29,439 nt of DNA from an uncultured Pseudomonadota bacterium (GCA_964609335.1 CAZSRQ010000013.1:1-29439), one strand, 5' to 3'. Shown: positions 1,208-26,750, counted from the first letter of the stretch. The notes: a model not told the origin generated them from the sequence alone. Translations and numbers: made by a program.

Positions 1208-1320
1208 TTCCCCCTTTGAAAAAGGGGGATTAAGGGGGATTTAGTGCTAGGAGTGGAAACAAGTAAAGCTTGTACTCTTTGCAATAAATCCCTCCCAACC
1301 TCCCTTTTTCAAAGGGAGGA
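1208..1320. repeat. Family-A palindromic element (diverged full-length copy)
   Basis: CCCCCTTTGAAAAAGGGGG-ATTAAGGGGGATTTAGTGCTAGG ... GCAATAAATCCCTCCCAACC-TCCCTTTTTCAAAGGGAGG. The right half carries substitutions relative to the left. Between the DUF882 gene and hisH. Confidence 0.75.
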
Positions 1321-1336
1321 ATAGATCAGTAAGAAT

Positions 1337-1945
1337 TTATTTCCACTTTCCAAACGCTTCCAAAATTTTTAACCCAACTGTTTGACTTTTCTCCGGATGA
1401 AACTGTGTGGCGAAAATATTGTCTTTGTAAATGCTCGAGGTAAATTCGATTCCATAATCGGTGGTGGTTGCTGTCACCGATGAATCCTCAGGAATCACAT
1501 AATACGAATGAACAAAATAAACATAACTTTCATCCGGAATTTCTTTCAAAAACGGAATCTCTTTTTTCTTGCGGATCTGATTCCAGCCGATTTGTGGGAT
1601 TTTTAGATCTTTTTTTTCAGGGAATCGAACTACTTTTCCTGGAATAATATTAAGTCCTTGATGATTTCCAAACTCTTCGCTTTCGGTGAAAAGGAGTTGC
1701 ATTCCGAGACAGATTCCCAAAAAAGGTTTTCCAGATTTGATCGATTGAATGATCGGTTCGACCAAACCAAAACGGTTGAGATTTTCCATGCAATCTTTGA
1801 ATGCGCCAACGCCCGGAAGAACAATCTTGTCAGCTTCTAGAATTTTTTTGGGATCGCGGGAAATCGAAGCTTCAAATCCGAGATGCTCAAAAGCTTTTTC
1901 AACACTTCGGAGATTTCCCATTTCGTAATCGATGAGGGTAATCAT
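1337..1945 (-). CDS. hisH: Imidazole glycerol phosphate synthase glutamine amidotransferase subunit HisH
   Basis: MITLIDYEMGNLRSVEKAFEHLGF N-terminus. GICLGMQ nucleophile-elbow Cys. Class I GATase His/Glu near the C-terminus. Adjacent to hisB. Confidence 0.9.
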   Translation of the reverse strand: MITLIDYEMGNLRSVEKAFEHLGFEASISRDPKKILEADKIVLPGVGAFKDCMENLNRFGLVEPIIQSIKSGKPFLGICLGMQLLFTESEEFGNHQGLNIIPGKVVRFPEKKDLKIPQIGWNQIRKKKEIPFLKEIPDESYVYFVHSYYVIPEDSSVTATTTDYGIEFTSSIYKDNIFATQFHPEKSQTVGLKILEAFGKWK

Positions 1946-1949
1946 AGTT

Positions 1950-2027
1950 GGTTAGGGGTCGGGGGTTAGGGGTTGGGAGTTGGAAAATTTTTTATCTGAC
2001 TCCTAACTCCCGACCCCTAACTCCAAA
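1950..2027. repeat. Long imperfect G/C-rich hairpin in the hisB-hisH intergenic spacer
   Basis: GGTTAGGGGTCGGGGGTTAGGGGTTGGGAGTTGG ...17 nt... TCCTAACTCCCGACCCCTAACTCCAAAC. The 13-bp core GTTAGGGGTCGGG pairs exactly and the flanks pair with wobbles. The right arm ends at the hisB stop. The left arm begins 5 nt from the hisH start. Confidence 0.7.
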
Positions 2028-2618
2028 CTAAAGTATTCCTTTTGTCGACGGAATTCCTTTCATTCTCGGATCAATCTGCGTTGCCATATCGCACGCTTTT
2101 GCAAATGCCTTAAAAATCGATTCGACGATATGATGACGATTTTTTCCGTACCAGACATTGATATGCAGATTGACCTGTGCAGCGTTGGTGAATCCTTGAA
2201 AAAATTCAGGAACCATTTCGACATCGAAAGTTCCAATTCTTCCGGGGCGGAGCGGTTTGACGTGATAGATCATGCAAGGTCTTCCTGAAAAATCGAGAGC
2301 CACCGTGGTTAAAACTTCATCCATCGGAAGAGTACAAGAACCATAACGACGAATCCCTTTTTTCTCCCCGAGTGCTTTTTTGAAGGCGTTTCCTAAAGTG
2401 ATCCCCACATCTTCCACGGTATGATGCAGATCAATATGAATATCCCCTTTCCCTTTGAGAGTCAGATCGAATAATCCATGTTTGGTGAACAGTTCCAACA
2501 TATGATTGAGAAAAGGAATTTCGGTATCAATCTTGTATTTACCGCTCCCATCGAGCTTAAAATCGATCTGGATCTGGGTCTCAGTAGTATTTCTGGCTAA
2601 TTTTGCTTTACGTTTCAT
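2028..2618 (-). CDS. hisB: Imidazoleglycerol-phosphate dehydratase HisB
   Basis: ARNTTETQIQI..LDGSG..IDTEIPFLNHML..F.KHG.FDL...KGD.HID.HHTVEDVGI.LG is the canonical IGPD signature. About 196 aa. Confidence 0.9.
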   Translation of the reverse strand: MKRKAKLARNTTETQIQIDFKLDGSGKYKIDTEIPFLNHMLELFTKHGLFDLTLKGKGDIHIDLHHTVEDVGITLGNAFKKALGEKKGIRRYGSCTLPMDEVLTTVALDFSGRPCMIYHVKPLRPGRIGTFDVEMVPEFFQGFTNAAQVNLHINVWYGKNRHHIVESIFKAFAKACDMATQIDPRMKGIPSTKGIL

Positions 2619-2685
2619 AGGGCTTAGGATTAAGAGATTTATTTGAGAAAGTCAAAAATGAATTGAAAAAAGGGGGATTTTTACC

Positions 2686-3708
2686 ATGTTTCCAGAGATC
2701 AAACCTGAAGAAATTTTTCCTCAAGGGGCTTCTGAATCGGTGGTTCGATCGGTGATTTACGCCTCAGAAAAAGAGTTTTTTGAAACTATTTTGCCTCTCA
2801 CCAATCGGCTCCGAGAGATGGCATTTGGAAATGAGGTCAGCTTCTGTTCCATCGTCAATGCGAAAAGCGGCGCCTGTGTTGAAACCTGTAATTTTTGTTC
2901 CCAATCAGCCTCCTTCAAAGGGGCCCAAGCTCCGCTCTATCCACTCATGAAAGCCGATCAAATTTTAGAAAAAGCCAAAGAGGCTGAAAAAATGGGGGGG
3001 ACTGAATTTTCAATTGTGACGAGCGGTCGTGGCATGACCAAACAAAAAGAGCTTGAGACGATGGTCGATGCGATCACGAAAATTCGCCAAGAAACAGAGT
3101 TAGAAACCTGCGCATCGCTGGGTCTTATGTCGCGCGAAGACCTTCTCCGTTTAAAAGAGGCAGGAATGCGTCATTATCATCATAATATCGAAACCGCGAA
3201 ATCATACTTTCCAAACGTCGTTCAAAGTCACAGCTGGGAAGAAGAAGTCCAAACGATAAAGCTCGCCAAAGAGCTAGGGTTCGAAACCTGCTGTGGTGGC
3301 ATCCTGGGAATGGGAGAAAATCTCGATCAACGAATCGAGTTTGTGATGCAGTTGAAAGAGATCGATCCACATTCGATTCCGATCAATTTTTTAAATCCAC
3401 GTCCCGGAACTCCGTTCGGTGAAAAAAATGAACTGACTCCGCTCGACTGTCTGAAAATCATTGCTGCACTCCGTTTGGCGATGCCGACGAAAGATCTGTT
3501 TGTCTGCGGTGGAAGAGAAGTGAACCTCAAAGAATATCAAGATCTGATGTTTCAGGCGGGTGCTTCCGGAACGATGCTCGGCAATTATCTCACGACTAAA
3601 GGAAGAAGTTCGGAGCAAGATGTCGAGATGATTGAGCGGCTCGGGTTTAAAGTGGTTCAGCCGCATCGAAGAGCGAAGAAAGTTTTAGAAAATTTGACCG
3701 GTAATTAA
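2686..3708 (+). CDS. bioB: Biotin synthase (radical SAM)
   Basis: CVETCNFCSQS radical-SAM CxxxCxxC motif. YHHNIETA, CCGGILGMGE and PINFLNPRPGTP match the BioB motifs YNHNLDTS, CSGGIVGLGE and PINMLVKVKGTP. SD AGGGGG lies 9 nt upstream of the ATG. Confidence 0.85.
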   Translation: MFPEIKPEEIFPQGASESVVRSVIYASEKEFFETILPLTNRLREMAFGNEVSFCSIVNAKSGACVETCNFCSQSASFKGAQAPLYPLMKADQILEKAKEAEKMGGTEFSIVTSGRGMTKQKELETMVDAITKIRQETELETCASLGLMSREDLLRLKEAGMRHYHHNIETAKSYFPNVVQSHSWEEEVQTIKLAKELGFETCCGGILGMGENLDQRIEFVMQLKEIDPHSIPINFLNPRPGTPFGEKNELTPLDCLKIIAALRLAMPTKDLFVCGGREVNLKEYQDLMFQAGASGTMLGNYLTTKGRSSEQDVEMIERLGFKVVQPHRRAKKVLENLTGN

Positions 3709-3714
3709 GCAGGG

Positions 3715-3736
3715 AGCGGACGGCTGTCCGTCCGTA
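3715..3736. terminator. Short GC hairpin between convergent bioB and the NHL-protein gene (candidate bidirectional terminator)
   Basis: GCGGACGG-CTGT-CCGTCCGT forms a 7-8 bp stem with a 4-nt loop, 8 nt after the bioB stop. The flanking T/A runs are weak. Confidence 0.4.
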
Positions 3737-3751
3737 TGAAAATGTTTTCCT

Positions 3752-4888
3752 TTATCTCTTCCCAATATTCTCATTCGCCGGAACCGGTTCGACCAGCGCT
3801 GGGCAGACATTCAATGTCGAAACCCGATAGGTTTTTTTGTTGGTAGTCGGATTTGTACTCCCCTCGATCATCCGAATACTTTTGTTTTGAAAATCGGTCA
3901 GATAAATTTTATCGGCACTTTCAACAAAAATTCCGAGAGGTTGATTGAATTTGGCAGTCGTTGCATCTCCGTCTGTATTCCCGGCCACCTTGGAGGTTCC
4001 TGCAATGGTGTTGACTGCTCCAGCTCTCGTGACCGTTCCGAGGGTGTTTGAAAGAGAATCGGTAAAATAAACCAGTCCGGTATTGTCGACTGCCACTCCG
4101 TGGGGAATTCCGAAAACCGTGGCAAGGGTGGAGACTGATCCGACCCCATTTTTAAAAGTGATCGCACGAATCGTCTGATTCTTGTTCTCGGTGACATACA
4201 ACGTTCCATTGTTTTCATCGATCGCAACATCCTCCGGAAAAGCAAAGCTGGCCTGATTCGCTGCCCCATCTTTCCAGTCGCGAGCTCCATTACCGGCAAT
4301 GGGGCTGACTTCATAGTTTGGAGTAGTGGTAATTTTTCGAATGACCGAGTTTGTGCTGTCGGCGATATAGAGATTGTTGTTTTTATCCATTCCAATTCCA
4401 GAAGGATTGTAAAATTGCGTGACCGTATTGTTTCCACCCGCTCCATTGATCAATCCCGGTTTTCCAGGGATTCCTGCAATCGTTGTAGTTTCGCCGTCAG
4501 CTGTTCGCACTCGCCGGATGAGATGATTATAATAATCGGTCACATAAAGATATTCTCCGTTTGAATCGATGACAAGATCGGAGGGACCGTTAAATCTTGC
4601 GTTCACTCCGATATCATCCTTGAACCCTGCTTCATTGGGAGAACCGGCGAGAATGGAATATCTTCCAGACGGATCTATTTTTCCGATGGTGTTGTAAACA
4701 AGTCCTCGAGCAAGGTAGATATTTCCCGACTTGTCTTTGGTCATTCCGACCGGCCATTCGAGTGCCATTTTTTCGGTACAGGGAAAAGATCTGCTCGCCG
4801 ACTTTGCCTCATGAATTTTGGGGATATTGAAAAAGAGTAGCAAGGGCAGAAAACTGAAACCGATCATCGTTTTTTTGATAAAACCCAT
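3752..4888 (-). CDS. Secreted NHL-repeat beta-propeller protein
   Basis: N-terminal signal peptide (GFSFLPLLLFFNIP). At least five NHL-type repeats: LYVTDYYNHLIRRV, LYIADSTNSVIRKI, LYVTENKNQTIRAI, VYFTDSLSNTLGTV, IYLTDFQNKSIRMI. Confidence 0.75.
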   Translation of the reverse strand: MGFIKKTMIGFSFLPLLLFFNIPKIHEAKSASRSFPCTEKMALEWPVGMTKDKSGNIYLARGLVYNTIGKIDPSGRYSILAGSPNEAGFKDDIGVNARFNGPSDLVIDSNGEYLYVTDYYNHLIRRVRTADGETTTIAGIPGKPGLINGAGGNNTVTQFYNPSGIGMDKNNNLYIADSTNSVIRKITTTPNYEVSPIAGNGARDWKDGAANQASFAFPEDVAIDENNGTLYVTENKNQTIRAITFKNGVGSVSTLATVFGIPHGVAVDNTGLVYFTDSLSNTLGTVTRAGAVNTIAGTSKVAGNTDGDATTAKFNQPLGIFVESADKIYLTDFQNKSIRMIEGSTNPTTNKKTYRVSTLNVCPALVEPVPANENIGKR

Positions 4889-5113
4889 AAATTTTTATCT
4901 CCCCTGATCACGGTTGTTCATCGATTCTCTTTTCTTGATTATAAAAGAAAAAAGAAAAAAATCTCAAAGGGAAATAATCAAATTTATTAATTGTTACAAA
5001 TAGTTATGTAATAATTGTCCGAAGGAGTTAAGCGTTGATAAAAGATGGTAAAGTGGGATTTCCAAAAGAGAGTTTTGATAAAATTCTTTTCCTTTTCACC
5101 CATGTAAAACAGA

Positions 5114-5968
5114 TCAAGCCTGTGAATGATTTTTTATCTTTGACCAGGCACTCACTGCCTCCATCAATTCGACAGGAACTGCCAACACGACTGTGTTTGA
5201 CGCGGTGGGTCCCAATCCATCAATCGTCTGAAGGGTTCGAAGTTGCATCGCCCCAGGGCTCGTTGCCATGGTCGTTGCAGCGGCAGCGAGATTGATCGCT
5301 GCCTCTTTGTCTCCCTCGGCTTTGGTGATGGTTGCCCGCTTTTCCCGTTCTGCCGAGGCTTGGCGGCTCATCATTTTTTTGAGTTCTTCGGGCATGTCGA
5401 TATCCTGCATTTTGATTGTGCTCACTTCGAGCCCCCAATTCGCACTCTCTTTTTCGACCGCTTTTTCAATTTCTGTCGCAATCTGTTCTCTCTCCGCCAA
5501 AAGCTGGTCGAGTGTCATTTTCCCAATGACATCCCTCAAAGTCGATTGAGCATATTGGCTCATCGCAAAAACATAATTTTGAACTTTGATGATGGCATCA
5601 TCCACCTTCACTACCCGGAAATAGACCACTCCGTTGATCGAGACCGGAACGTTGTCTTTGGTGATCACCTGCTGTTTAGGGATATCGAGCGTTAAAATCC
5701 GGGTATCGACGAAAATAGCGCGATCGATCACCGGAATGACGAGACAGATTCCAGGTCCTTTAATCGATGAAAATTTTCCGAGTCTTAAAATAATAATTTT
5801 TTCCCACTGATCGGCAATTTTGATGGCGATTGAGACGAACATGGCAAAGAAAAACGCACCGAAGATGGCAAGTCCACCCAAAACCGGATTGATCAGGTAA
5901 ATAAAACCGGCTACCACCTCACCGATGACTAATAGAATGAGAAAGAAAAGAAAATTGACCGCTTTCAT
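5114..5968 (-). CDS. SPFH/band-7 (stomatin/prohibitin-like) membrane protein
   Basis: N-terminal transmembrane segment, then an SPFH core (ILRLGKF....GPG..LVIPVIDR...VDTR..TLDIPKQQVITKDNV). C-terminal coiled-coil EELKKMMSRQASAEREKRA. No NfeD partner gene is adjacent. Confidence 0.85.
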   Translation of the reverse strand: MKAVNFLFFLILLVIGEVVAGFIYLINPVLGGLAIFGAFFFAMFVSIAIKIADQWEKIIILRLGKFSSIKGPGICLVIPVIDRAIFVDTRILTLDIPKQQVITKDNVPVSINGVVYFRVVKVDDAIIKVQNYVFAMSQYAQSTLRDVIGKMTLDQLLAEREQIATEIEKAVEKESANWGLEVSTIKMQDIDMPEELKKMMSRQASAEREKRATITKAEGDKEAAINLAAAATTMATSPGAMQLRTLQTIDGLGPTASNTVVLAVPVELMEAVSAWSKIKNHSQA

Positions 5969-6032
5969 ATTGAATCCCTTTCTTAAATGTGGACAAAGCG
6001 CAGCCTGTCCAGCCTACATTTTGTATAAAGAA

Positions 6033-8283: not shown

Positions 8284-8742
8284 ATGGAAAGGGTGTTAAT
8301 GGCTTTTTCAAACTCTCAAGATCGTCGTAGCTATTCAACCTTGGCAGAAATCAATATTACTCCGCTGGTTGACGTCATGCTGGTTCTGCTGATTATTTTC
8401 ATGATTACTGCTCCTTTGATGATGGAGGGGGTGAAAGTCGATCTCCCTTCCGCGACAACCCAGGCGATGAAAAATGACAAAGAAGATGTCGTGTTAACTG
8501 TCACAAAAAGTGGAGATCTTTTTCTTCAGGGAGATAAAAGCACCTACAATCTTTCCAATCTCACCGAAAAACTGGTAGCGGTGTATCAAAACAAATCCAA
8601 AAAGGATATTTTCCTTCGGGCAGACAAAACAGTCCCCTATGGTATTGTGGTCCAAGTGATGGCAACGTGTAAAAATGCTGGCATTGAGCGAATCGGCATG
8701 ATTACTGAAACCGATGCCCAACCGAAAGATTCTCCCCTCTAA
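8284..8742 (+). CDS. tolR: Tol-Pal system protein TolR (ExbD/TolR family)
   Basis: LAEINITPLVDVMLVLLIIFMITAP TM helix with the conserved Asp. An alternative ATG at 8299 (MAFSN) has a better SD (AGGGTG) and may be the true start. Confidence 0.85.
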   Translation: MERVLMAFSNSQDRRSYSTLAEINITPLVDVMLVLLIIFMITAPLMMEGVKVDLPSATTQAMKNDKEDVVLTVTKSGDLFLQGDKSTYNLSNLTEKLVAVYQNKSKKDIFLRADKTVPYGIVVQVMATCKNAGIERIGMITETDAQPKDSPL

Positions 8743-9586
8743 GAAACAAGATCTGTTGACAATGGAAAAACAATTTCTTTCAGAAAAGAAGATTTATACC
8801 CGCTTTATTGGCTATTCATTTGCGTTGCATCTGTTTCTTTTTTTGTTTTTTTTGATTGTTTCGGTTTTCCAACAAAAAGTGATTTCTCCTGAAAAGGAGA
8901 TTATGTGGGTTCAGTTGGGATCTTCTGGTACTCAAGAAGGTTTACCGATCAAAGAGTCAAAAACTCTTCCGAAAACCACAATTGAAGAGCAGAAAAAAGC
9001 AAAAGAAGAACAACCGCCTCCAAAACAGGTCAAAAAAGAGGAATCGAAAGTGAATAAAGAGGTAAAGCAGAATGTAAAAGAGAAGGTGGCGATTCAAGAT
9101 AAAAACAAAAAACCTAAAAAAGAAGAAAAGAATGAGATGAAAAAGGAGGAGGTAAAACCCTCCAAGGAAGATTCAAAAATCAAAGAGGCACTGAAAAAAA
9201 TCAATGAAGATCTGAAAGAAAAATCGGTTCCTCCTGAAGCTGCCCAGGCAAAGCAGGGTGGATCTGGGGATCCGGCCGGTAATCCGGAAAAAGGGGGAAG
9301 TAATTCCGAATGTGGAAGATATTCTGCCCGAGTAAGACAGAGAATTGTGAGCAACTGGATTCGGTTGATCGGGTCGAATCGACCTCCACGTTCTCCAAAA
9401 ATTTCGGTGATGATCAACGCGAATGGGGAAATTATTTCAACTCCGCAATGGATTCAAAAGTCGGGAGATTATTCTTTGGATGCATCGACCTTACGAGCGG
9501 TGCAAACTTCTTCTCCCTTTCCGCCTCCTCCAGTCGATTGCCAGGAAGCGGTGAAAGAAGGATTTGTGGTGGTTTTTGGAAAATAA
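8714..9586 (+). CDS. tolA: TolA-like protein: N-terminal TM anchor, K/E-rich linker, TonB-C-type C-terminal domain
   Basis: TM helix (FALHLFLFLFFLIVSVF), then a long KEE/KK low-complexity linker. C-terminal domain RYSARVRQRI..NW..........I.V.I..NGEI has a TonB_C-like fold. Its position between tolR and tolB favours TolA over TonB. Alternative start at 8762 (MEKQF). Overlaps the tolR end by 29 nt if started at 8714. Confidence 0.7.
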   Translation: MPNRKILPSKKQDLLTMEKQFLSEKKIYTRFIGYSFALHLFLFLFFLIVSVFQQKVISPEKEIMWVQLGSSGTQEGLPIKESKTLPKTTIEEQKKAKEEQPPPKQVKKEESKVNKEVKQNVKEKVAIQDKNKKPKKEEKNEMKKEEVKPSKEDSKIKEALKKINEDLKEKSVPPEAAQAKQGGSGDPAGNPEKGGSNSECGRYSARVRQRIVSNWIRLIGSNRPPRSPKISVMINANGEIISTPQWIQKSGDYSLDASTLRAVQTSSPFPPPPVDCQEAVKEGFVVVFGK

Positions 9587-9595
9587 TCGGAAGAA

Positions 9596-9680
9596 GAATT
9601 CAGGAGACAGAAATCAGAAGATAGAATAAAAAAATTTTATTCTTCATTCTTCTGACTCCTGATTTCTGTCTCCTGAATTC
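9596..9680. repeat. Long hairpin between tolA and tolB: 22-bp perfect stem, about 41-nt AT-rich loop
   Basis: GAATTCAGGAGACAGAAATCAG (9596-9617) is the exact reverse complement of CTGATTTCTGTCTCCTGAATTC (9659-9680). The left arm extends to 9620 and the right arm carries a 7-nt CTCCTGA insertion. Confidence 0.8.
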
Positions 9681-9708
9681 TGTATTATAAAGTCATGAAA
9701 GGTCACTT

Positions 9709-11010
9709 ATGAAAAAACATCTTATCCTCTTTTTTATTCTCAATCTTTTTTTGATTTCCGCTGCCCAAGCGAAAATTTATATTTATGTTGATCAGCCAAG
9801 TCCCGAAAGAAAATTTCCGATTGCGGTTCCTGATTTGGTGAATCTAAAAGGAGGAGAGAAAGATGATTTGCTCACAAAAATTCCCGATGTTTTAAGAAAC
9901 GATCTAAAGCTCGCCGGATATTTTCAGGTTCTAAACAAATCGACCTATCTTGAAAATCCAGGGCCGGGGCTCATCTCCCAAGAGATTGATTTCAAAAAAT
10001 GGACGGCGATTGAAGCGAATGCGTTGGTCAAGGGAGGGATTGCAGTCGATGGCAAAAACATCACGCTTCAATTCAGGCTTTTTGATCCGTACACCGGAGA
10101 AATGCTTGTCGGTAAAGAATATAAGGTCGACAGAAACAATTACCGTGCAGCCGTTCATCGCTTTATGGATGAAGTGATGCTTGCTCTCACCGGAGAAAAA
10201 GGGGTTTTCTCGACGAGAATTACCGCCGCTTGCGGAAAAATCGGAAAACGCGAAATTTTTGTGATGGATGTCGATGGTGGAAATATGTCAGCCATTACGA
10301 ATAATCAGTCGATTAACGTTTCCCCTTCGTGGTCTCCCGATAATTCACAAATCGCTTTTACTTCTTATTCAAAATATTTTCCTGAAATTTTTACGATTCC
10401 TTCGAGTGGAAAGGGAAAACCGAAACGGATCACTTTTAACAATTCAATGAATATCACGCCCGCTTGGGCTCCTGATGGAAGCGCGATTGCCATTTCGAGC
10501 AGCATGTCGGGTGATCCGGAGCTTTATCTGATTGATGCACAGGGAAATAAACTGGCGCAACTAACCCGGAGTTTTGGAATTGATCTGAATCCAACCTGGT
10601 CTCCCGATTCGCAGCATCTCATTTTTGCCTCTGAACGGGCCGGGAATTTGCATCTATTTTCCATGGATCGGAAGGGTGGAAACACAAAAAGACTTACTTT
10701 TGTCGGCTATCAAAATGATCAACCCGACTGGTCTCCCAAGGGAGACAAAGTTGCTTTCAGTAGTCGTGACAGCGGAAATTTTGATATTTTTACCATGAAT
10801 GCCGATGGATCGATGATTCAACGTTTGACCAGTGGATCAGGCAACAATGAATCCCCCAGCTTTTCCCCGGATGGACGATATATTGTTTATACCAGCACAC
10901 GCGGTTATCGAAGCGATGTCTTTATCATGCTTTGGGATGGATCGAATCAAACCCGAATTACTCAAACCGGTGATTGTGTCAATCCAGATTGGTCGAATTG
11001 GATGAATTAA
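9709..11010 (+). CDS. tolB: Tol-Pal system beta-propeller protein TolB
   Basis: Signal peptide, N-terminal TolB domain, then repeated [PS][ST]WSPDG.x.[IV][AV][FY]-type blades: SWSPDNSQIAF, PAWAPDGSAIA, PTWSPDSQHLIF, PDWSPKGDKVAF, PSFSPDGRYIVY. Confidence 0.9.
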   Translation: MKKHLILFFILNLFLISAAQAKIYIYVDQPSPERKFPIAVPDLVNLKGGEKDDLLTKIPDVLRNDLKLAGYFQVLNKSTYLENPGPGLISQEIDFKKWTAIEANALVKGGIAVDGKNITLQFRLFDPYTGEMLVGKEYKVDRNNYRAAVHRFMDEVMLALTGEKGVFSTRITAACGKIGKREIFVMDVDGGNMSAITNNQSINVSPSWSPDNSQIAFTSYSKYFPEIFTIPSSGKGKPKRITFNNSMNITPAWAPDGSAIAISSSMSGDPELYLIDAQGNKLAQLTRSFGIDLNPTWSPDSQHLIFASERAGNLHLFSMDRKGGNTKRLTFVGYQNDQPDWSPKGDKVAFSSRDSGNFDIFTMNADGSMIQRLTSGSGNNESPSFSPDGRYIVYTSTRGYRSDVFIMLWDGSNQTRITQTGDCVNPDWSNWMN

Positions 11011-14549: not shown

Positions 14550-15569
14550 ATGCGTCCAAGAATTGTTTCGTTAATTGCGAGTAGTACTGAAATTGTCTGT
14601 GCGCTTGGTTTCTATGGTCATCTGGTTGGCAGATCCCACGAATGTGATTTTCCACTTTCAGTCAAAAGTCTTCCGGTTTGTACCGAACCAAAATTCAACA
14701 TCGATGGAAATAGTTATGAAATTGATCAGCGAGTGAAAGCAATCCTCCAAGAAGGGCTTTCTGTTTACCGCGTTCATGCCGATCAGCTTAAAAAATTAAA
14801 ACCCGATCTGATTGTGACCCAGGTTCAATGTGAGGTTTGCGCGGTGAGTGAGAAGGATGTCGAAGAAGCGGTTTGTCAGCTGGTCGACTCCAAGCCGAAA
14901 ATTGTTTCCTTGAATCCGAATTCATTGAAAGATCTTTGGGAGGATATCCGAAAAGTGGCAACAGCGCTGAATGTGATTCCTAAAGGGGAAGAGGTGATTG
15001 CGGATTTGAAAGCGAGGATGAGTATAATTTCTCAGAAGATACAAGAAAATTTTTCTAAAGGTGTTTCATTAGATAAATCCCCCCAGCCCCCTTTGCTAAA
15101 GGGGGAGACAGCAATACCCCCCTTTGAAAAAGGGGGGCTGGGGGGGATTTCTTCCACTCGTCCCACGGTTGCCTGCATTGAATGGATCAATCCGCTGATG
15201 TCGTGTGGAAACTGGCTTCCAGAGCTGGTTGAAATGGCGGGTGGAATCAATCTTTTTGGCGAGGCAGGAAAACATTCTCCCTGGATGACGTTTGAAGATC
15301 TGCTCCAAAAAAATCCCGATATCCTGATTGTTTTGCCCTGTGGATTTGATATTCCGAAAACGAGAGAAGAGATGCATTGGCTGACCGACAATCCCAACTG
15401 GAAAAAACTGAAAGCGGTTCAAAACAAAAAAGTTTTTTTGGCGGATGGAAATCAGTATTTCAATCGCCCGGGTCCGCGAGTTGTCGAATCGTTGGAGATC
15501 TTGGCAGAAATTTTTTATCCGACTCTTTTTAATTTCGGACATCACAAGAAAGCATGGGAAGAATGCTAG
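14550..15569 (+). CDS. Cobalamin/Fe-siderophore-type ABC substrate-binding protein (BtuF/class III SBP-like) with an in-frame repeat-derived insertion
   Basis: N-lobe motifs (RIVSLIASSTEIVCALG, KPDLIV). The inter-lobe motif RPTVACIEWINPLMSCGNWLPELVEMAGG is typical of the BtuF family. No signal peptide is evident. Codons 176-201 (KSPQPPLLKGETAIPPFEKGGLGGIS) are encoded by a palindromic repeat. Confidence 0.7.
   Translation: MRPRIVSLIASSTEIVCALGFYGHLVGRSHECDFPLSVKSLPVCTEPKFNIDGNSYEIDQRVKAILQEGLSVYRVHADQLKKLKPDLIVTQVQCEVCAVSEKDVEEAVCQLVDSKPKIVSLNPNSLKDLWEDIRKVATALNVIPKGEEVIADLKARMSIISQKIQENFSKGVSLDKSPQPPLLKGETAIPPFEKGGLGGISSTRPTVACIEWINPLMSCGNWLPELVEMAGGINLFGEAGKHSPWMTFEDLLQKNPDILIVLPCGFDIPKTREEMHWLTDNPNWKKLKAVQNKKVFLADGNQYFNRPGPRVVESLEILAEIFYPTLFNFGHHKKAWEEC
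15075..15150. repeat. Family-A palindromic element (compact 76-bp variant) inside the SBP coding sequence
   Basis: AAATCCCCCCAGCC [CCCCTTTGCTAAAGGGGG] AGACAGCAATA [CCCCCCTTTGAAAAAGGGGGG] CTGGGGGGGATTT. Two internal hairpins are enclosed by an outer inverted repeat. The CCCCCTTTGAAAAAGGGGG hairpin also occurs in the copies at 1208, 20815 and 26625. Confidence 0.75.
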
Positions 15570-18540: not shown

Positions 18541-20799
18541 ATGAAATCTGAATCCTGGAAAGAAAAATTGTCGAATGAAATTTCCCCTGATTGGGCTGAA
18601 GAAATCAACGCGTTTGAATCCGAGATTGAACTCAAAAAACAGGGGAAGATTGAAGATCGTGTGTTTGCCGAAACAAGGCTTCGTCGCGGTGCGTATGGTC
18701 AACGTTATGATAATGGTCAGCGTCACGATGGAACAAAAACTCAAACTCTCAAATTCCGGGAAGAAGAGATTTATAAAGGTCCGCATACCTTGTGGGATGC
18801 CCCAGGAATGGAGCGAATCAAAATTCCTTTTGGAGGGATGACCGCCCAGCAGTGCGAAGTGATGGCGGAGCTTGCCGAAGAGTATTCCGACGGGATTGCC
18901 CATGTGACAACTCGCCAAGATTTTCAACTTCATTTTATTCATATCGAAGATACTCCTGATTTGATGCGGAGGCTTGCAGCAGTCGGGATCACTACCCGAG
19001 AAGCTTGTGGGAATTCTATCCGCAATATCACTGGCTGTCCTTACGCTGGTGTTTGCTCTGATGAGGCGTTTGATACCAGCCCCTATGCCAAAGCGGCGAC
19101 TTTCTTTTTGCTCGGTCATCCCGATTGCCAAGAGTTCGGTCGAAAATTCAAAATTGCTTTTTCAGGATGCGGAAAAAATGCCTGCGCGCTGGTCAATATT
19201 CACGACATGGGATTTGTCGCGGTCACCCGAATGGAAAATGGCGTTGAAAAGCGCGGTTTTCAAACGTTTGTTGGCGGTGGTCTCGGCTCAGTTCCACAAA
19301 ATGCAAAAGTTCTCGAAGAGTTTTTACCCGAAGAAGAGCTGTTACCGATGACCCAAGCGGTCGCGCGGGTTTATGCGAAATATGGAGAGAAAAAAGATCG
19401 AGGGCGAGCACGAATCAAATTTCTCATCAAAGATTGGGGAATTGATAAATTTAAAGAAGAAGTTGTGAAAGAGAGAAAAATTTTAAAAGAAGATTCTCGC
19501 TGGACTGATTATCTCCAAGAAACCCGAAAAGAGTTTGAATCTCCACTCAAAAAGTCAGAACCGTTAAAAACTCATCCAATCTCCGAAGAATTGAATCGAT
19601 GGATGAAAACCAATCTTCGCAAACAGAAGCAGGAAGGGTATGTCGTGGTGACGGTAAAACTTCCTTTGGGGGATATCACTGCCGATCAGCTTCGCGCGTT
19701 GGCCGATATTTCCAGAAAATTTGTGAAAGATACCATCCGCACCACCGTCGAGCAGAATATGGTTCTCCGTTGGGTCAGCGAGTCCGATCTCCCGGCACTT
19801 TATGAAGCATTGAAAAAAGCGGAGCTTGCCGATTCAGGCGCCGGAACGATTCTCGATGTGGTCGCTTGCCCCGGAACTGATACCTGTAAACTGGGAATTT
19901 CCTCTTCCCGCGGTCTCGCCGGAGAGCTTCGGGAGCGACTTGCCGAACAGGCGCATCTGATGGATGAGGCGGTTCAAAGTCTGCATGTGAAGGTGAGCGG
20001 CTGTTTCAATTCTTGTGGACAACATCATATCTCCGATCTCGGATTCTACGGAGTCAGCCGAAAAATCGCGGGATATATGGTTCCACATTTTCAAGTCGTT
20101 TTGGGCGGACAGTGGGAAAACAACGGTGGATCCTACGGATTACCGATGGGACCGATCCCCTCCAAGCGAATCCCAGAGGTCGTTACCCGTTTAACCGGTC
20201 GATATTTATCCGATCGGCAAAAACAGGAAAATTTCAAGGATTTTGTCCAGCGGGTCGGAAAAGTTGAAATCAAAAGTCTGTTGCAAGATCTGACTCAGGT
20301 TCCTTCGCATGACCAGGATCCCTCCTTTTACAGTGATTGGGGAAATCCGCGCGAATACACGACTGGCGATATCGGAATTGGCGAATGCGCAGGAGAAGTG
20401 GTTTCGATGACCGAGTTTGATTTGACCTCCGCCGAAAGAGAAGTTTTCGAAGCGCAGGTTTTACTCGATAAAAAAGAGGATCAGAAAGCGGGAGAACGGG
20501 CTTATCAGGCGATGCTCATCGCGGCGAAAGGATTGATTCGGACTGAACTTCGGGATGTTCCCACCGATCCGAATCAGATTATGAATGAATTTAAAACCCG
20601 ATTTTATGAGACGCAGGTTTTTTTCGATCCGTTTGCCGGTGGAAAATTTGCGCAATATTTTTTCATTGCGCATAAAAAGGCAGGTTCTACCTATACAGCG
20701 GAATCGGCTCATCAGCTAATTGAAGAGGCGAGTCTGTTTGTGGAGGCGGCTTATAGTTGTTATCACCGGTTGGGAGAGAAGAAAGTTTCTCTTTCTTAA
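18541..20799 (+). CDS. Ferredoxin-dependent sulfite/nitrite reductase (siroheme, NirA/Sir family) with a ~170-aa C-terminal extension
   Basis: Two nitrite/sulfite-reductase half-domains. The siroheme-[4Fe-4S] Cys cluster is ACPGTDTC (C-x5-C) plus SGCFNSCGQHH (C-x3-C). A degenerate first-repeat motif is TGCPYAGVC. The N-terminus resembles SirA/NirA. Residues ~580-752 have no recognisable family. Confidence 0.85.
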   Translation: MKSESWKEKLSNEISPDWAEEINAFESEIELKKQGKIEDRVFAETRLRRGAYGQRYDNGQRHDGTKTQTLKFREEEIYKGPHTLWDAPGMERIKIPFGGMTAQQCEVMAELAEEYSDGIAHVTTRQDFQLHFIHIEDTPDLMRRLAAVGITTREACGNSIRNITGCPYAGVCSDEAFDTSPYAKAATFFLLGHPDCQEFGRKFKIAFSGCGKNACALVNIHDMGFVAVTRMENGVEKRGFQTFVGGGLGSVPQNAKVLEEFLPEEELLPMTQAVARVYAKYGEKKDRGRARIKFLIKDWGIDKFKEEVVKERKILKEDSRWTDYLQETRKEFESPLKKSEPLKTHPISEELNRWMKTNLRKQKQEGYVVVTVKLPLGDITADQLRALADISRKFVKDTIRTTVEQNMVLRWVSESDLPALYEALKKAELADSGAGTILDVVACPGTDTCKLGISSSRGLAGELRERLAEQAHLMDEAVQSLHVKVSGCFNSCGQHHISDLGFYGVSRKIAGYMVPHFQVVLGGQWENNGGSYGLPMGPIPSKRIPEVVTRLTGRYLSDRQKQENFKDFVQRVGKVEIKSLLQDLTQVPSHDQDPSFYSDWGNPREYTTGDIGIGECAGEVVSMTEFDLTSAEREVFEAQVLLDKKEDQKAGERAYQAMLIAAKGLIRTELRDVPTDPNQIMNEFKTRFYETQVFFDPFAGGKFAQYFFIAHKKAGSTYTAESAHQLIEEASLFVEAAYSCYHRLGEKKVSLS

Positions 20800-20814
20800 A
20801 ATTCCAAGGATGTT

Positions 20815-20925
20815 TCCTCCCTTTGGAAAAGGGAGGTTAGGAGGGATTTAGTGCAACCAAACCTTAAGAAGTGCTCAACTCCTAGCACTAAATCCCCCTT
20901 AATCCCCCTTTTCCAAAGGGGGAGA
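20815..20925. repeat. Family-A palindromic element (full-length, ~110 bp)
   Basis: CCTCCCTTTGGAAAAGGGAGG-TTAGGAGGGATTTAGTGCAACC ... CCTAGCACTAAATCCCCCTTAAT-CCCCCTTTTCCAAAGGGGG. Terminal hairpins plus GGATTTAGTGC / GCACTAAATCC internal inverted repeats. Confidence 0.8.
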
Positions 20926-20978: not shown

Positions 20979-21572
20979 ATGAATCTTCAAAAATTAAATC
21001 TCAAAATTTTTATCGCAAATCCTGAAACGGTTCAGTTTGAAACTTTCATCCCGATTTTTCATCGCTGGATTCAGGAACAGAATATGAGTGATCTGTTGCT
21101 CGATGTGGCAGATTATCAACATGTGCCTTCCGGCCCAGGGATTATGCTGATCGCCCAGAATGCGAACTACAGTATTGATAATGCGCAGAACCGGTTGGGA
21201 TTTCTCTATAATCAAAAAACAGTTCTTGAAGGAAATAATCCCGATAAACTGAAAAAACTTTTTCAAACGACTTTGTTGACTTGTCAAAAGCTTGAACAAG
21301 AGGAAACTTTGAAAGGAAAGTTGAAATTTTTAACCAATGAGATGCAGTTCATTCTCAACGATCGTTTAAATGCTCCGAATACCGAAGAGACTTTTCAGAA
21401 AGTAAAAGGGGAAATTTCTTCTTTCTTGAATTCTTTTTTTGGTGAGAACAATTATTCACTTCATCGTCATTCCGACCCGCGCGAGAGATTTACGCTGGAG
21501 ATTAAAACTTCCGCCTCTTTTTCTTTGGATGAGCTCTTAAAAAAAAGTAATTACTCAGGTTATTCCAGATGA
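20979..21572 (+). CDS. Hypothetical protein (197 aa, no recognisable domain)
   Basis: Good SD (AAGGAAA) 8 nt upstream of the ATG. Coding-like composition. The last 8 codons (SNYSGYSR) and the stop codon lie inside the left terminus of the family-B repeat. Confidence 0.5.
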   Translation: MNLQKLNLKIFIANPETVQFETFIPIFHRWIQEQNMSDLLLDVADYQHVPSGPGIMLIAQNANYSIDNAQNRLGFLYNQKTVLEGNNPDKLKKLFQTTLLTCQKLEQEETLKGKLKFLTNEMQFILNDRLNAPNTEETFQKVKGEISSFLNSFFGENNYSLHRHSDPRERFTLEIKTSASFSLDELLKKSNYSGYSR

Positions 21573-21715
21573 TTGTCATCCCCGAGTGTTTTTATCGGGG
21601 ATCCCCCTACTCAAATATTGGATCAGGGGGATTCTCCTGCCTGCCTGCCGGCAAGGCACGGCGCCCAAAAGCCTACGGGAATGACAGTACTATTTTGGAT
21701 CAGCTGAGTAGTTAC
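21547..21715. repeat. Family-B palindromic element, copy 1 (~169 bp; TIR GTAATTACTCAGG / CAGCTGAGTAGTTAC)
   Basis: About 85-90% identical to 24943-25104 and in the same orientation. Internal hairpins: CCCCGAGTGTTTTTATCGGGG, ATCCCCCT...AGGGGGAT, TGTCAT...ATGACA. Confidence 0.8.
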
Positions 21716-23369: not shown

Positions 23370-23400
23370 AGATCATTCAACGATTCATCTTTTGGTGAGC

Positions 23401-23823
23401 TCAGGACTGAATATACCGTTTAAGCTGGATATTCTCATCCTCGATTTCTTCAACGATCCACTCCAGGATATTTCTCATCGTGACCACTCCAACCACTTTT
23501 GTTCCATCGACAATCGGAATATGCCGACATCGGGTCTCTTCCATTTTTTTGAAACAGTTTTGGGTCGTTTCATCGATCGGCACGGTTGTAATATTTTTCG
23601 ACATCACTTCCGAGAGGGCTGTTTTTTCCGGGTCAAGATTTTTGGCGACGACCCGATTGAGAAGATCCCGCTCGGTAAAGATGCCTGTGAGCTGATCGTT
23701 ATCCATCACGAGAATGCTTCCGATCGAGCGGGAAACCATCGTTTTTACCGCTTCCAAAACCGTCGATTTTGAGGGAAGAGTCACGATTTTTTGGGATTTG
23801 ACCAAAGTTTGTAAAAGACTCAT
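23401..23823 (-). CDS. CBS-pair domain protein
   Basis: Two CBS motifs (ILVMDNDQLTGIFTERDLL and HIPIVDGTKVVGVVTMRNIL). 140 aa. Confidence 0.8.
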   Translation of the reverse strand: MSLLQTLVKSQKIVTLPSKSTVLEAVKTMVSRSIGSILVMDNDQLTGIFTERDLLNRVVAKNLDPEKTALSEVMSKNITTVPIDETTQNCFKKMEETRCRHIPIVDGTKVVGVVTMRNILEWIVEEIEDENIQLKRYIQS

Positions 23824-23917
23824 AAAAAAGTCCTTGTCTTTAAAGGGTTAAAATTTGCATAAACAACCGTCATCCATAGTCTAACAAAATCGGAATCAAA
23901 AAGTAAGGATCAGAGTT

Positions 23918-24919
23918 ATGCTGGAAAATTATTATTACTGGATCGGAATGGGAGTGGTCGGGGTTTTGATTGTCATGGTTCTTTTCCTGATTTTCAAAAA
24001 AAGCAGGAAAAAAACGGAGGATGCGCCGCTCACGGCCGGACTCAAAAAAACCCATGCAAATTTTTCCGCCAAAATTGATGAAATGCTTGGTCGACGTTCC
24101 AAGATCGATGGAGAGATTTTTTCCAGGCTCGAAGAAATTTTGCTGGAGGCAGATGTCGGGGTAAAAACAACGCAAAAGCTTCTTCAATCGATTACACAAG
24201 ATATTACGAAATCGGGAAAACAGGATATCCGGATGCTGAAAGGTTTTCTCAAACAAGAGTTGCTGAAGTTGTTGACGGAAGATCCCCCGACAAAAAATTG
24301 TCCGGAAATTCCCAAAGTCATTTTGGTGGTCGGGATTAACGGGGTTGGCAAAACCACCACCATCGGAAAACTGGCAAAAAGATTCCGTTCGAAAGGGGAT
24401 AAAGTTTTACTCGCTGGCGCAGACACTTTCCGGGCTGGGGCAGTCAGCCAGTTGAAAGTCTGGGCGGAGAGAGTCGGGGCTCAAACGCTTTCCCAAAATG
24501 ATGGAGCCGATCCCGCTGCGGTCTCCTACGATGCGGTCAAGGCGGCGACTGCCCGTGGCATGGAGGTGGTGGTGATTGATACTGCCGGAAGATTGCATAC
24601 CAAAATCAATCTGATGGAAGAGATGAAAAAAATAAAACGGGTGATCGGCAAGGCGAAAGAAAATGCCCCGCATGAAATTTATCTGGTGGTGGATGCAACC
24701 ACCGGTCAGAACGCCCTGATGCAGGCGCGAGAATTCAATGAGGCGCTCGGATTAACCGGCATCATCCTCACCAAGCTCGATGGAACTGCCAAGGGGGGAA
24801 TTGTCGTTGCCATCCATGATGAGTTGAAGGTTCCAATCCGTTATATTGGCGTGGGAGAAAGAATTGATGATCTGAAAGAGTTCAATGCAAAAGAGTTTGT
24901 CGATGCCTTGTTGAATTAA
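23918..24919 (+). CDS. ftsY: Signal recognition particle receptor FtsY
   Basis: N-terminal TM anchor. NG domain with [15 protein letters not shown] (G1), DTAGR (G3), TKLDG (G4). Confidence 0.9.
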
Positions 24920-24924
24920 AAACG

Positions 24925-25132
24925 CACGTTACGCGATTTTTTGTAACTACTCAGGTCATTCCCAATGATTGTCATCCCCGAAGGTTTTTTCGGGGATCCC
25001 CCTACTCAACAATTGAATGAGGGGGATTCCCCTGCCTGCCGGCAAGGCACGGTGCCCAAAAGCCTGCAGGAATGACAGTAATTTTGGACGAGCTGAGTAG
25101 TTACAAAAAAATTACAAAAAATCGCGTAACGT
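24925..25132. repeat. Family-B palindromic element, copy 2, nested inside an additional outer inverted repeat
   Basis: Core 24943-25104 (GTAACTACTCAGG...GAGCTGAGTAGTTAC). It is enclosed by CACGTTACGCGATTTTTT (24925-24942) and its reverse complement AAAAAATCGCGTAACGTG (25115-25132). Starts 6 nt after the ftsY stop. Confidence 0.8.
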
Positions 25133-25243
25133 GACTTAAAAATAAAACTTTGATTCTTAAAAAAAAATTATGCTACCATCCCTCCACACATAAAAAATCC
25201 GGCGTTTTTGGTGAATCTTCACATTTTCCTTGGAGGGGGGATT

Positions 25244-26047
25244 ATGGCAACGATTACTAACTCAACGGCGATACAAACATTGTCACTGTTGAGATCGAGT
25301 GGCATTCTTGGATTTGAAAAACTCCCATTGTCATCACCATCCTCTCTTGAAATTGAAAAAGATAAAGCGAACTACTATCTGTTTCGTCTCAGTTTACTCG
25401 GCGCCAATCAGACTCGTGGAATCATAGACTCGCAAGATTTGCAGGCGGTGAATACCGCTTTGCAAGAAAAAGGAAAAAAACCGTTATCTGAAAGACAAAT
25501 CCTCAATCTGGCGGGGGAGTTTCAAAGAAAATTTGGTGTTTCATTTCCGATGCAACTTTCAAATGGAAGACTCTGGGATCCTGCCAAAATCAAAGATCCA
25601 TCCCAGCAAGAAATCCAGAATTTAGCCCAAGCGTTGCAGGGCAACTCTATTGGTCCCGAAAGGCAAGTCATTACAATTCATAAAACCCCTGATCATGAAC
25701 GCGATACTACCGTTCTTCGCAAAACCGATATTCTTCTCACCTTTCTTCAAAATTCAGGGCTCGCCCAAAAAGATGGAGAGATGATCGCTTGGATAAAACC
25801 GGAGGAGGTAATTTCGATTCAGGCCGATTTTCATCATCATTCCAGCTTAAGGCAAGGGTTTGAGGTAGATGGAAAAACGGTTGTTTATCGAATTGTCTAT
25901 GAGGAAAAAGGTTCAAAAGAGAGTAAGTGGTTGGAGGTTGAGGTAAAATCTTTCGCTGAATATCAACGCGATCCAAATGCCAATGGTTATCTGAAAATAC
26001 TCGCGAAAAAAACCGAAGAGTTGATAAAACCGAAATTGAAGCTTTGA
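25244..26047 (+). CDS. Hypothetical protein (267 aa, soluble, no recognisable domain)
   Basis: Start placed at ATG 25244 (MATITNS), with strong SD GGAGGGG 5 nt upstream. The tracked ORF starts at an upstream TTG (25208). No TM or signal peptide. Confidence 0.5.
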   Translation: MATITNSTAIQTLSLLRSSGILGFEKLPLSSPSSLEIEKDKANYYLFRLSLLGANQTRGIIDSQDLQAVNTALQEKGKKPLSERQILNLAGEFQRKFGVSFPMQLSNGRLWDPAKIKDPSQQEIQNLAQALQGNSIGPERQVITIHKTPDHERDTTVLRKTDILLTFLQNSGLAQKDGEMIAWIKPEEVISIQADFHHHSSLRQGFEVDGKTVVYRIVYEEKGSKESKWLEVEVKSFAEYQRDPNANGYLKILAKKTEELIKPKLKL

Positions 26048-26053
26048 GAGATT

Positions 26054-26203
26054 AGATCTCTTGCGTAAATCCAAATGGATGGTTCGACTACGCTCACCAT
26101 GTCCCGCTTTTACCCAATTGGGACACCCTGAGCTTGCTCGCCTTGCTGAAGCTTCCGCGAAGCGGGTCGAAGGGTCATTTTGGATGATTTACGCAAGAGA
26201 TCT
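26054..26203. repeat. Palindromic element C (TIR AGATCTCTTGCGTAAATC / GATTTACGCAAGAGATCT), shares an internal module with the 16757 element
   Basis: 18-bp perfect terminal inverted repeats. The internal GATGGTTCGACTACGCTCACCATGTCCC matches 16850-16885. Fills the gap between convergent hyp279 and arsC. Its right arm overlaps the arsC stop codon. Confidence 0.75.
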
Positions 26204-26600
26204 ATTGTCTAAGACGTTCCAATAATTCACCTACTTTGAGTTGAATCTGGTCACGCACTTTTCTGAACTCATCCAACGTCATATTTTTCGGATCAGGAAT
26301 TTTCCAATCTTCCCTCAATTTTCCCTGAACATACGGACATTCATCTCCACATCCCATCGTCATCACCGCGTCATATTGAGTGGCCGGAATATCCGAGAGC
26401 GATTTTGAATCATGGCTGGATAGATCATATCCGATCTCTTTCATCGATTCGATTGCCTTCGGATTTATTTTCCCGGACGGTTTTGAGCCGGCGCTGTAGA
26501 CTTCGATATCCTCGCGATTGGAGAGATGGACAAACGCTTCTGCCATCTGGCTTCGGCAGGAATTTTCAATGCAGACAAAAAGGATTTTTTTCTTGTTCAT
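26202..26600 (-). CDS. arsC: Arsenate reductase, thioredoxin-coupled LMW-PTP family
   Basis: ILFVCIENSCRSQMAE P-loop (CX5R) plus downstream GCGDEC cysteines, as in B. subtilis/S. aureus-type ArsC. 132 aa. Confidence 0.85.
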   Translation of the reverse strand: MNKKKILFVCIENSCRSQMAEAFVHLSNREDIEVYSAGSKPSGKINPKAIESMKEIGYDLSSHDSKSLSDIPATQYDAVMTMGCGDECPYVQGKLREDWKIPDPKNMTLDEFRKVRDQIQLKVGELLERLRQ

Positions 26601-26624
26601 AAAGTTTCATTTCCTCAGGGCAGA

Positions 26625-26750
26625 ACCCCCCTTTGAAAAAGGGGGGCAGGGGGGATTTAGTGCAACTTGTGGTAGAGAAAGATCAATTTTTCAAAACTGC
26701 AAACTCTATCTAATAAATCCCCCTAATCCCCCTTTTTCAAAGGGGGAGAA
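26625..26750. repeat. Family-A palindromic element (full-length, ~125 bp)
   Basis: CCCCCCTTTGAAAAAGGGGGG-CAGGGGGGATTTAGTGCAAC ... TAATAAATCCCCCTAATCCCCCTTTTTCAAAGGGGGAG. Its right end encodes the last 8 codons and the stop of the aquaporin gene. Confidence 0.8.

Follow-up and report, generated by a model that had tools for sequence, protein, structure and literature searches.

We analysed a 29,439-nt stretch of DNA from an uncultured Pseudomonadota bacterium (GCA_964609335.1 CAZSRQ010000013.1:1-29439; hereafter the window), and found that four palindromic elements in it are built from eight copies of a 33-nt module with the design of a class II intrastrand triplex motif. Modules of the same family are spread over many phyla, where inverted pairs of them also enclose a small gene of the DUF559 family. 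We consider the window elements to be gene-less copies of this widespread triplex-motif repeat, with the module-DUF559-module units as their putative autonomous partners, and put the probability of this reading at roughly two in three. The sequence family of the module is new here; the class II triplex design itself is already known.

The repeating unit is the module and not the 110-nt element. Read on one strand, it consists of [T/C]CCCCCTTT, the triloop GAA or GGA, AAAGGGGG[A/G], about 3 nt, and [A/G]GGGGGATT, or in short [T/C]C5T3 - GNA triloop - A3G5[A/G] - N1-3 - [A/G]G5ATT, as exemplified by TCCCCCTTTGAAAAAGGGGGATTAAGGGGGATT. The third segment is thus a second purine run, placed 3' of a 9-bp hairpin, and is the mirror image of the first purine run. 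In each of the eight modules of the window the segments are 9 nt long, with a first loop of 3 nt and a second of 1-3 nt, and 8-9 of 9 positions agree with Watson-Crick pairing and 8-9 of 9 with a triad. The refined limits of the four elements are 1209-1319, 15076-15149, 20816-20923 and 26626-26747, and their parts are as follows.

1209-1241, plus strand: left module of copy 1, TCCCCCTTT-GAA-AAAGGGGGA-TTA-AGGGGGATT; 9 of 9 Watson-Crick pairs, 9 of 9 triads
1242-1286, no strand: spacer of copy 1 between inward-facing modules, starting with TAGTGCTAGGAGTGGA and ending with TTGCAATA
1287-1319, minus strand: right module of copy 1, variant type, CCTCCCTTT-GAA-AAAGGGAGG-TTG-GGAGGGATT; 9 of 9 pairs, 9 of 9 triads
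15076-15106, minus strand: first module of copy 2 (compact, tail-to-tail), TCCCCCTTT-AGC-AAAGGGGGC-T-GGGGGGATT; 8 of 9 pairs, 8 of 9 triads
15117-15149, plus strand: second module of copy 2, CCCCCCTTT-GAA-AAAGGGGGG-CTG-GGGGGGATT; 9 of 9 pairs, 9 of 9 triads
20816-20848, plus strand: left module of copy 3, variant type, CCTCCCTTT-GGA-AAAGGGAGG-TTA-GGAGGGATT; 9 of 9 pairs, 9 of 9 triads
20891-20923, minus strand: right module of copy 3, TCCCCCTTT-GGA-AAAGGGGGA-TTA-AGGGGGATT; 9 of 9 pairs, 9 of 9 triads
26626-26657, plus strand: left module of copy 4, CCCCCCTTT-GAA-AAAGGGGGG-CA-GGGGGGATT; 9 of 9 pairs, 9 of 9 triads
26716-26747, minus strand: right module of copy 4, TCCCCCTTT-GAA-AAAGGGGGA-TT-AGGGGGATT

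The initial annotation had placed four copies of a single palindromic repeat here, with terminal hairpins and internal inverted repeats, and this description was borne out. The pattern CCCTTTGRAAAAGGGN{9,12}GGGATTT matched five times in the window and not once in any of 100 dinucleotide-preserving shuffles; the arms of copy 4 fall outside this count solely because the allowed range of gaps was too narrow. Mechanical repeat finding assigned all four copies to one family and showed copies 1 and 3 to be one element in opposite orientations, with arms that are 96% and 93% complementary. A whole pair has thus been duplicated within the window, and the first part of the copy 1 spacer is common to copy 3 when read as the reverse complement. 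Of the inner repeats GGATTTAGTGC / GCACTAAATCC, those of copy 3 are perfect and those of copies 1 and 4 degenerate. The modular build that had been proposed for the long and compact forms also stood, except that the compact 76-nt form is no truncated version of the long one: the long form (copies 1, 3, and 4) is a plus module, 42-58 nt and a minus module with the ATT ends inward, while the compact form (copy 2) is a minus module, 10 nt and a plus module, tail to tail, with the ATT ends outward. In all four pairs of the window, as in many pairs of the family, the two ends are unlike. Single-stranded DNA folding of the complete elements gave long fold-backs (-28 to -36 kcal/mol, z = -5 to -8.3), and that of a single module gave the 9-bp hairpin with its triloop.

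The compensated CCCCC/GGGGG versus CCTCCC/GGGAGG substitutions pointed out earlier are real, and they reach the third run as well (GGAGGG), which the initial annotation had missed. In the right module of copy 1, for instance, T, A and A changes lie at the matching positions of all three segments. Among 120 distinct hairpins, 100 cells were changed on both sides of the stem, as compared to 26.7 in shuffles, and none of 500 shuffles reached the observed value; slid-register controls were much lower. Across genomes one rule holds for the third segment: base i after the first loop is the same as base i before the 3' end of the third run. Presence of an A in the purine run is predictive of A or T at its mirror position in the third run (Fisher p = 4e-8, 1e-5, 1e-13 and 2e-31 at four positions, with the register picked leave-one-out without the tested position and one count per locus), where the p-values overstate the case, the counts being phylogenetically non-independent and a horizontally spread variant being counted in several loci. 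The more robust statement is that at least five separate variant types obey the mirror rule. GGGAGG/GGAGGG, GAGGGG/GGGGAG, GGAGGG/GGGAGG, GGGAGA/AGAGGG and GGGGAG/GAGGGG are each seen in several loci, all of them mirror-symmetric and none a direct repeat, and in some variants an A:T pair is faced by a T of the third run.

Selection on secondary structure, as first proposed, is thus supported by the covariation, although probably not in the form of an RNA fold. Because the third segment is mirror-symmetric, and purine-motif triplexes do not form in RNA (PMC4666352), the pattern points to selection on a DNA triplex, in which a single-stranded module would fold twice into a class II intrastrand triplex of nine triads with the predicted triads G.G:C, A.A:T and T.A:T. 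The conservation of ATT after the second G run would follow from the same model, since its bases would be placed on the three A:T pairs adjoining the triloop. A different hairpin, in which the third run pairs with the C run, was rejected: the changed base of the GAGGGG/GGGGAG and GGGAGA/AGAGGG variants cannot pair in it, and the mirror relation always holds. A G-quadruplex was likewise discarded, as each strand of a pair has three G runs only. Besides the non-independence of the counts, two points weigh against a triplex: folding software represents just the hairpin and the long fold-back, and in double-stranded DNA or in a K+-rich cytoplasm the triplex may rarely form. Three-way covariation of this sort offers rare evidence from nature that a DNA triplex is under selection.

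A 22-position module pattern was scanned over one genome per species (185,579 species). Matches came from at least 120 genome stretches, which belong to more than 15 phyla and to one archaeal metagenome-assembled genome (MAG; Methanobacteriota), where about one match would be expected by chance (our own estimate for uniform base composition). The family is therefore not lineage-specific, in contrast to the earlier suggestion. The bacterial hosts include Desulfobacterota, Ignavibacteria, Kapaibacterium, Omnitrophota, Nitrospirota, Gamma-, Beta- and Alphaproteobacteria, Myxococcota, Dehalococcoidia, Parcubacteria, Methylomirabilota, Acidobacteriota, Trueperaceae, Binatia, Schekmanbacteria, Bdellovibrionales, Bacillota and Brocadiia. 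Both the long and the compact arrangement recur in other phyla, as does the pairing of a CCCCC-type with a CCTCCC-type module. Among the matches listed, 242 modules comprised 62 solo modules, 56 (+,-) pairs, 41 (-,+) pairs and six same-orientation neighbours. The gaps of the 56 (+,-) pairs were 2-63 nt in 44 cases and 359-421 nt in six, the latter being close to the span of five units that hold an open reading frame (ORF). In Methylococcaceae, short forms have a spacer that matches subterminal sequence of the long form.

When ORFs with modules on both sides were listed in loci chosen by the DNA motif, six candidates were obtained, of which four were the same small protein (Pfam DUF559, PF04480, E = 1e-31 to 1e-33). 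The gene encodes 100-120 amino acids and belongs to the YcjD-like branch of the Vsr / PD-(D/E)xK fold; the protein also matches PDB entry 3HRL, titled 'Endonuclease-Like Protein' (E = 4e-19). The layout module(+) - ORF - module(-) was seen in five loci from mutually distant taxa, namely Sulfuricella, Thalassocella and MAGs of Omnitrophota, Bdellovibrionales and Nitrospirota. For a test independent of the DNA motif, 80 metagenomic DUF559 loci were picked by the peptide pattern V[IV]E[LV]DG[DSG][QSV]H alone, and their flanks were searched with a strict general triplex finder, with the following result.

Plus module upstream of DUF559: 39 of 72 evaluable loci
Minus module downstream of DUF559: 46 of 71 evaluable loci
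Modules on both sides of DUF559: 30 of 63 evaluable loci
Background more than 450 nt from DUF559: 0.098 modules per kb
Shuffled DUF559 flanks: 0 modules

Such ends are thus present in 54-65% of the DUF559 loci, about 50 times the background. By visual inspection, most loci that failed the strict finder, including some viral contigs, show this design too, except that the second loop of their ends contains a small nested hairpin. The 28 full units measure 409-472 bp and lie in unrelated outer flanks, with one module 60-135 nt upstream and one 0-60 nt downstream of the gene, always inverted, and this geometry recurs in distant phyla. The closest DUF559 homologues have C5T3-type ends and more distant ones have ends of the type of the Escherichia coli repeat BoxC in the same geometry, and the end type tracks the protein clade, with mean identities of 0.57 and 0.52 within the types versus 0.48 between them. 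Of the 80 ORF matches, 76 are without an internal stop, and the residues E5, W9, Q25, D34, F35, D60, R63 and R76, all outside the search pattern, are 90-100% conserved. DUF559 genes have been reported to be 14-fold enriched among predicted invertible segments (PMC9881135), which fits genes located between inverted repeats. A PADLOC search found no known defence system, just a weak similarity, at the level of domains, to the nuclease domains of restriction enzymes. In the DUF559 literature, covered incompletely as titles, abstracts and a few full texts, we found no link to repeats, triplexes or mobility, and on that coverage the connection between triplex repeats and DUF559, BoxC included, has apparently not been reported before.

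Some DUF559 loci show further arrangements of the modules. In eight of them the second loop of the end is a G+C-rich hairpin of 12-20 nt, giving the order Y - loop - R - [hairpin] - RH. A locus on the Nitrospirales chromosome OY820905.2 (L041, 5211-6280) holds a tandem array of units of about 275 nt, each a plus module, a 46-codon DUF559 fragment and a minus module, and a full flanked DUF559 copy lies 2.5 kb from this array. In another locus (L148, 1256-1943) four modules lie before the DUF559 gene and three of the same type after it, placed head-to-tail at 38 nt, a local amplification of one end.

The design of the module is that of BoxC, rediscovered as PIT (potential intrastrand triplex) and then as TM_ECO (Holder et al. 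2015, PMC4666352; citing Bachellier, Hoyne and Maher), so that the family is of a described kind, whereas the initial annotation had thought it probably undescribed. TM_ECO has the consensus CCCTCNCCC-N3-6-GGGNGAGGG-N3-GGGNGAGGG, forms a stable triplex by circular dichroism and nuclear magnetic resonance, and is present in 23 intergenic copies in E. coli K-12, as single modules and inverted pairs tied to local genome variability, neither a function nor a mobilising activity being known for it; class II motifs rich in G/C abound in many bacteria (PMC4666352). All eight window modules have the features of this class: a Y run, a complementary R run and a second R-rich run, loops of 1-6 nt, stems of at least 6 nt, and a third segment that is an antiparallel mirror, kept when the stem varies. 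They share with BoxC/PIT/TM_ECO the Y-R-RH order, the 9-nt stems, the 3-nt second loop and the class II purine motif, with T or A of the third strand over A:T pairs, as well as the occurrence as single modules and inverted pairs, mostly intergenic and with no transposase reported. In E. coli, too, a DUF559 gene, ycjD, adjoins BoxC. In K-12 the ycjD stop lies inside a partial TM, the protein ends in ...RSPSP*, and 3' of the gene follow a duplicated piece of about 30 nt of its own 3' end and, about 170 nt away, TM_ECO #9 (whole arrangement at 1351200-1351424; L130, 1701-1925). In E. coli S88, looked at as a possible empty ycjD site, the locus is occupied by a different island. The two families differ in sequence (C5T3/A3G5/G5ATT in the window versus CCCTCNCCC/GGGNGAGGG/GGGNGAGGG), and the window modules do not fit the TM_ECO consensus; 3 of their 9 triads are A/T-based, and the first loop is GNA. 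The window family furthermore occurs in many phyla and not just in Proteobacteria, and one of its window copies lies in frame inside a gene. Triplex formation has been measured for TM_ECO alone, and for the window it is predicted from sequence. A literature search for the literal sequence CCCTTTGAAAAAGGG, incomplete in coverage, returned no paper.

Taken together, these data suggest how the elements could spread. In strained or single-stranded DNA, each end would fold into a triplex, the two ends on opposite strands, and the DUF559 nuclease would recognize or nick the folded ends and drive copying, possibly by a single-strand or repair-templated route; such a route would suit the missing target-site duplication. 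The module-DUF559-module units of 409-472 bp would be the autonomous partners, and the long forms of the window would be internal-deletion derivatives that use the protein in trans, related to the units as miniature inverted-repeat transposable elements (MITEs) are to insertion sequences. Tail-to-tail compact pairs may represent junctions of a right end with a left end. More speculatively, the fold-backs of unlike ends would contain G.T mismatches, the substrate type of the related enzyme Vsr (PMC3424549). We infer triplex formation by the window sequence, mobility of the elements and the role of DUF559 as the mobilizing enzyme, whereas the module anatomy, the three-way covariation, the spread over phyla and the physical association with DUF559 genes were observed. 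The widest version of this model is tentative, with odds slightly below even: triplex inverted pairs in general, both of the window family and of BoxC/PIT/TM_ECO, could be the ends of unrecognized mobile elements of about 0.41-0.47 kb, whose sole gene, DUF559/YcjD, recognizes or nicks three-stranded ends, and of which gene-less pairs and solo modules are non-autonomous forms. BoxC/PIT was noted in the 1990s and forms a triplex in vitro, with no origin, function or spread found (PMC4666352), and DUF559 is a widespread nuclease fold without a known role. If true, the proposal would provide a function for DUF559, an origin for BoxC-type repeats and the first mobile element with triplex-defined ends; if the pairing is functional, it would represent a new and extremely compact type of mobile element and a biological use for intrastrand triplex DNA, testable in E. 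coli through ycjD and BoxC.

Several observations weigh against the gene-less-copy reading. There is no clean empty site in the close relatives, in which the spacer is wholly different where the element is absent, and target-site duplications were seen neither at the four window copies nor at the 28 full-length units. No DUF559 gene was found in the window or in the fragments of its relatives, nor any DUF559 remnant in the window spacers and the relatives, where the sole tblastn matches traced to the tail of one query, which is itself encoded by the repeat. Among the remoter DUF559 homologues of viral contigs, many are without strict triplex ends. Physical linkage is no proof of catalysis, and DUF559 could be just a passenger. 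Finally, of 5426 complete E. coli genomes, 4461 have a BoxC pair and 3378 have ycjD, so the repeats persist without the gene.

The missing duplications and the excess of BoxC over ycjD would also be expected if host processes alone (replication slippage, template switching or recombination at non-B DNA) spread the repeats, with DUF559 as a passenger or selfish gene that landed between them or was captured by them. That TM_ECO is tied to local genomic instability with no transposase nearby (Holder et al., PMC4666352) speaks for such processes, as do the different small palindromes at orthologous sites of close relatives, as if these sites were unstable or permissive. They do not readily account, however, for a fixed unit geometry of 409-472 bp that recurs in unrelated flanks and distant phyla, for end types that follow the protein clade, or for DUF559 ORFs kept intact with conserved nuclease residues, and the near-identical whole pairs at unlinked sites of the window imply copying of the pair as a unit. 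We therefore regard spread by host processes alone as rather unlikely.

The elements of the window stand in close relation to its genes, which are listed here with the copy concerned.

1337-1945, minus strand: GATase gene; the right module of copy 1 lies about 16 nt past its stop codon
14550-15569, plus strand: host gene of copy 2, a Peripla_BP_2 (cobalamin/iron-complex binding) protein with Pfam PF01497 matches in two stretches
18541-20799: NIR_SIR (nitrite/sulfite reductase) gene; the left module of copy 3 lies about 16 nt past its stop codon
26202-26600, minus strand: LMWPc gene; the left module of copy 4 lies 25 nt upstream of its start
26723-27415, minus strand: MIP (aquaporin-like) gene; the right module of copy 4 provides its last codons and stop

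Three of the four copies thus lie just 3' of genes, 0-16 nt after the stop codon, and the remaining one is intragenic and in frame. Such positions, together with the strong fold-back energies and the presence of other hairpins at the same places in relatives, are what one would see if the elements were locally evolved regulatory hairpins (terminators or mRNA-stabilizing stem-loops) or a structured RNA instead of a DNA repeat that moves. However, none of the four copies is followed by a T tract or was flagged by a terminator scan. The window gave no Rfam match at the gathering threshold; below it, at a permissive E-value, just generic eukaryotic miRNA-precursor hairpins appeared, which we dismissed as artefacts of any long hairpin. 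One copy is intragenic, the copies stand in either orientation to their neighbouring genes, the mirror covariation is unexplained by an RNA helix, and one 33-nt sequence in more than 15 phyla is incompatible with local evolution. We give this explanation scarcely any weight, although the elements may have a secondary role as mRNA 3' hairpins.

The in-frame position of the compact copy in ORF 14550-15569 had escaped the initial annotation. Its second module is translated as ...IPPFEKGGLGGI..., and the copy adds about 30 amino acids to the binding protein, in a surface loop situated between its two lobes. The closest homologue (P0002), with 91% identity over the alignment, is without the repeat-encoded loop segment (309 versus 339 amino acids), the usual length of Peripla_BP_2 homologues being 304-312 amino acids; the best-named homologues come from Acidobacteriota/Blastocatellia and KSB1 MAGs. 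The MIP protein of the window ends in ...SPSPPLKKGD*, a tail shared by one of four close relatives (same 90% cluster), the other three ending in ...GYVLK*, ...GFILK* or ...GYI*, so that the repeat-derived C-terminal tail is polymorphic among relatives. Peptides such as PPFEKGG, KSP..PLFQRG and SPSP..GEG are in this way added by the repeats to predicted proteins.

Close relatives are either without the window copies or carry other small palindromes at the same sites. In the P0002 strains, a GTAG-tagged hairpin, GTAGGGGCGC...GCGCCCCTAC, lies in frame at the same loop of the binding protein (L121, ~730-790), and at the MIP site relatives have a GTAG-type hairpin instead (L128, ~4110-4170). In the relative SRR21359781, the binding-protein loop holds a BoxC-like module with a hairpin nested in its second loop, and the assembly contig breaks exactly there (L126:1-60 with L125:1-60); the repeats thus also break metagenome assemblies. 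More distant binding-protein homologues (P0005-P0008 and P0016) have other inserts in the same loop. Downstream (3') of the reductase gene, a close relative carries a different triplex pair, and a more distant syntenic genome is without any intergenic space. The GTAG...CTAC-tagged, G+C-rich (REP-like) hairpins at sites where the window has triplex pairs suggest either common, permissive landing sites or the replacement of one family by another.

These hairpins also raise the possibility that the elements are REP/REPIN elements mobilized by a REP-associated tyrosine transposase (RAYT). As in the REPIN/RAYT system (Bertels and Rainey 2011, PMC3116915), two inverted palindromic units with a short spacer give a long hairpin (z = -5 to -8.3 for the window fold-backs), copies persist mostly outside genes, just 3' of them, with no target duplication, and there are many gene-less copies per flanked gene, as in K-12 with 23 TM_ECO copies versus one ycjD. 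Unlike REPINs, however, the family has no GTAG or CGTC tag in the eight window modules or in the 175 matches listed from other genomes, its module sequence is common to many phyla, and the gene between the modules is the Vsr-fold DUF559 and not a Y1 (HUH) transposase. When about 1.1 Mb of module-bearing loci was searched by tblastn with E. coli RayT, nothing matched at E <= 1, a weak negative from a single query, and a model based on hairpins only has no need of a mirror-symmetric third segment. A RAYT-driven origin is thus very improbable. A catalogue paper of GTAG/CGTC REP sequences was also set aside as a source of the family, as it holds no G5 or C5 repeat and no mention of triplexes.

Other known systems share single features with the elements. 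MITEs and their parent insertion sequences resemble them in having terminal inverted repeats and short gene-less forms beside longer gene-carrying forms with the same ends, and differ in the target-site duplication that is absent here and in their parent, the candidate parent here being about 0.45 kb and encoding no known transposase family. Rickettsia palindromic elements (RPEs) are another palindromic repeat that inserts in frame in protein genes and adds a surface-loop peptide. They are unrelated in sequence and host lineage, and only one of the four window copies is intragenic; RPEs are not known to be triplex motifs. Vsr and the EDxHD homing endonuclease I-Bth0305I, a nuclease proven to act in mobility (homing), belong to the same PD-(D/E)xK/Vsr-like fold group as DUF559 (PMC3424549, PMC3239194), whereas DUF559/YcjD is a predicted nuclease that is not encoded in an intron or intein and is flanked by triplex-motif inverted repeats.

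The window has no tRNA genes. It contains a second, unrelated repeat family of about 160-170 nt, with two copies (21556-21715 and 24943-25100) that are about 86% identical and have terminal inverted repeats GTAAyTACTCAG...CTGAGTAGTTAC and internal hairpins, and which looks like a classical MITE. In addition, a near-perfect palindrome of 87 nt with 35-nt arms that are 89% complementary was observed at 9595-9681, between the ORFs 8714-9586 and 9709-11010.

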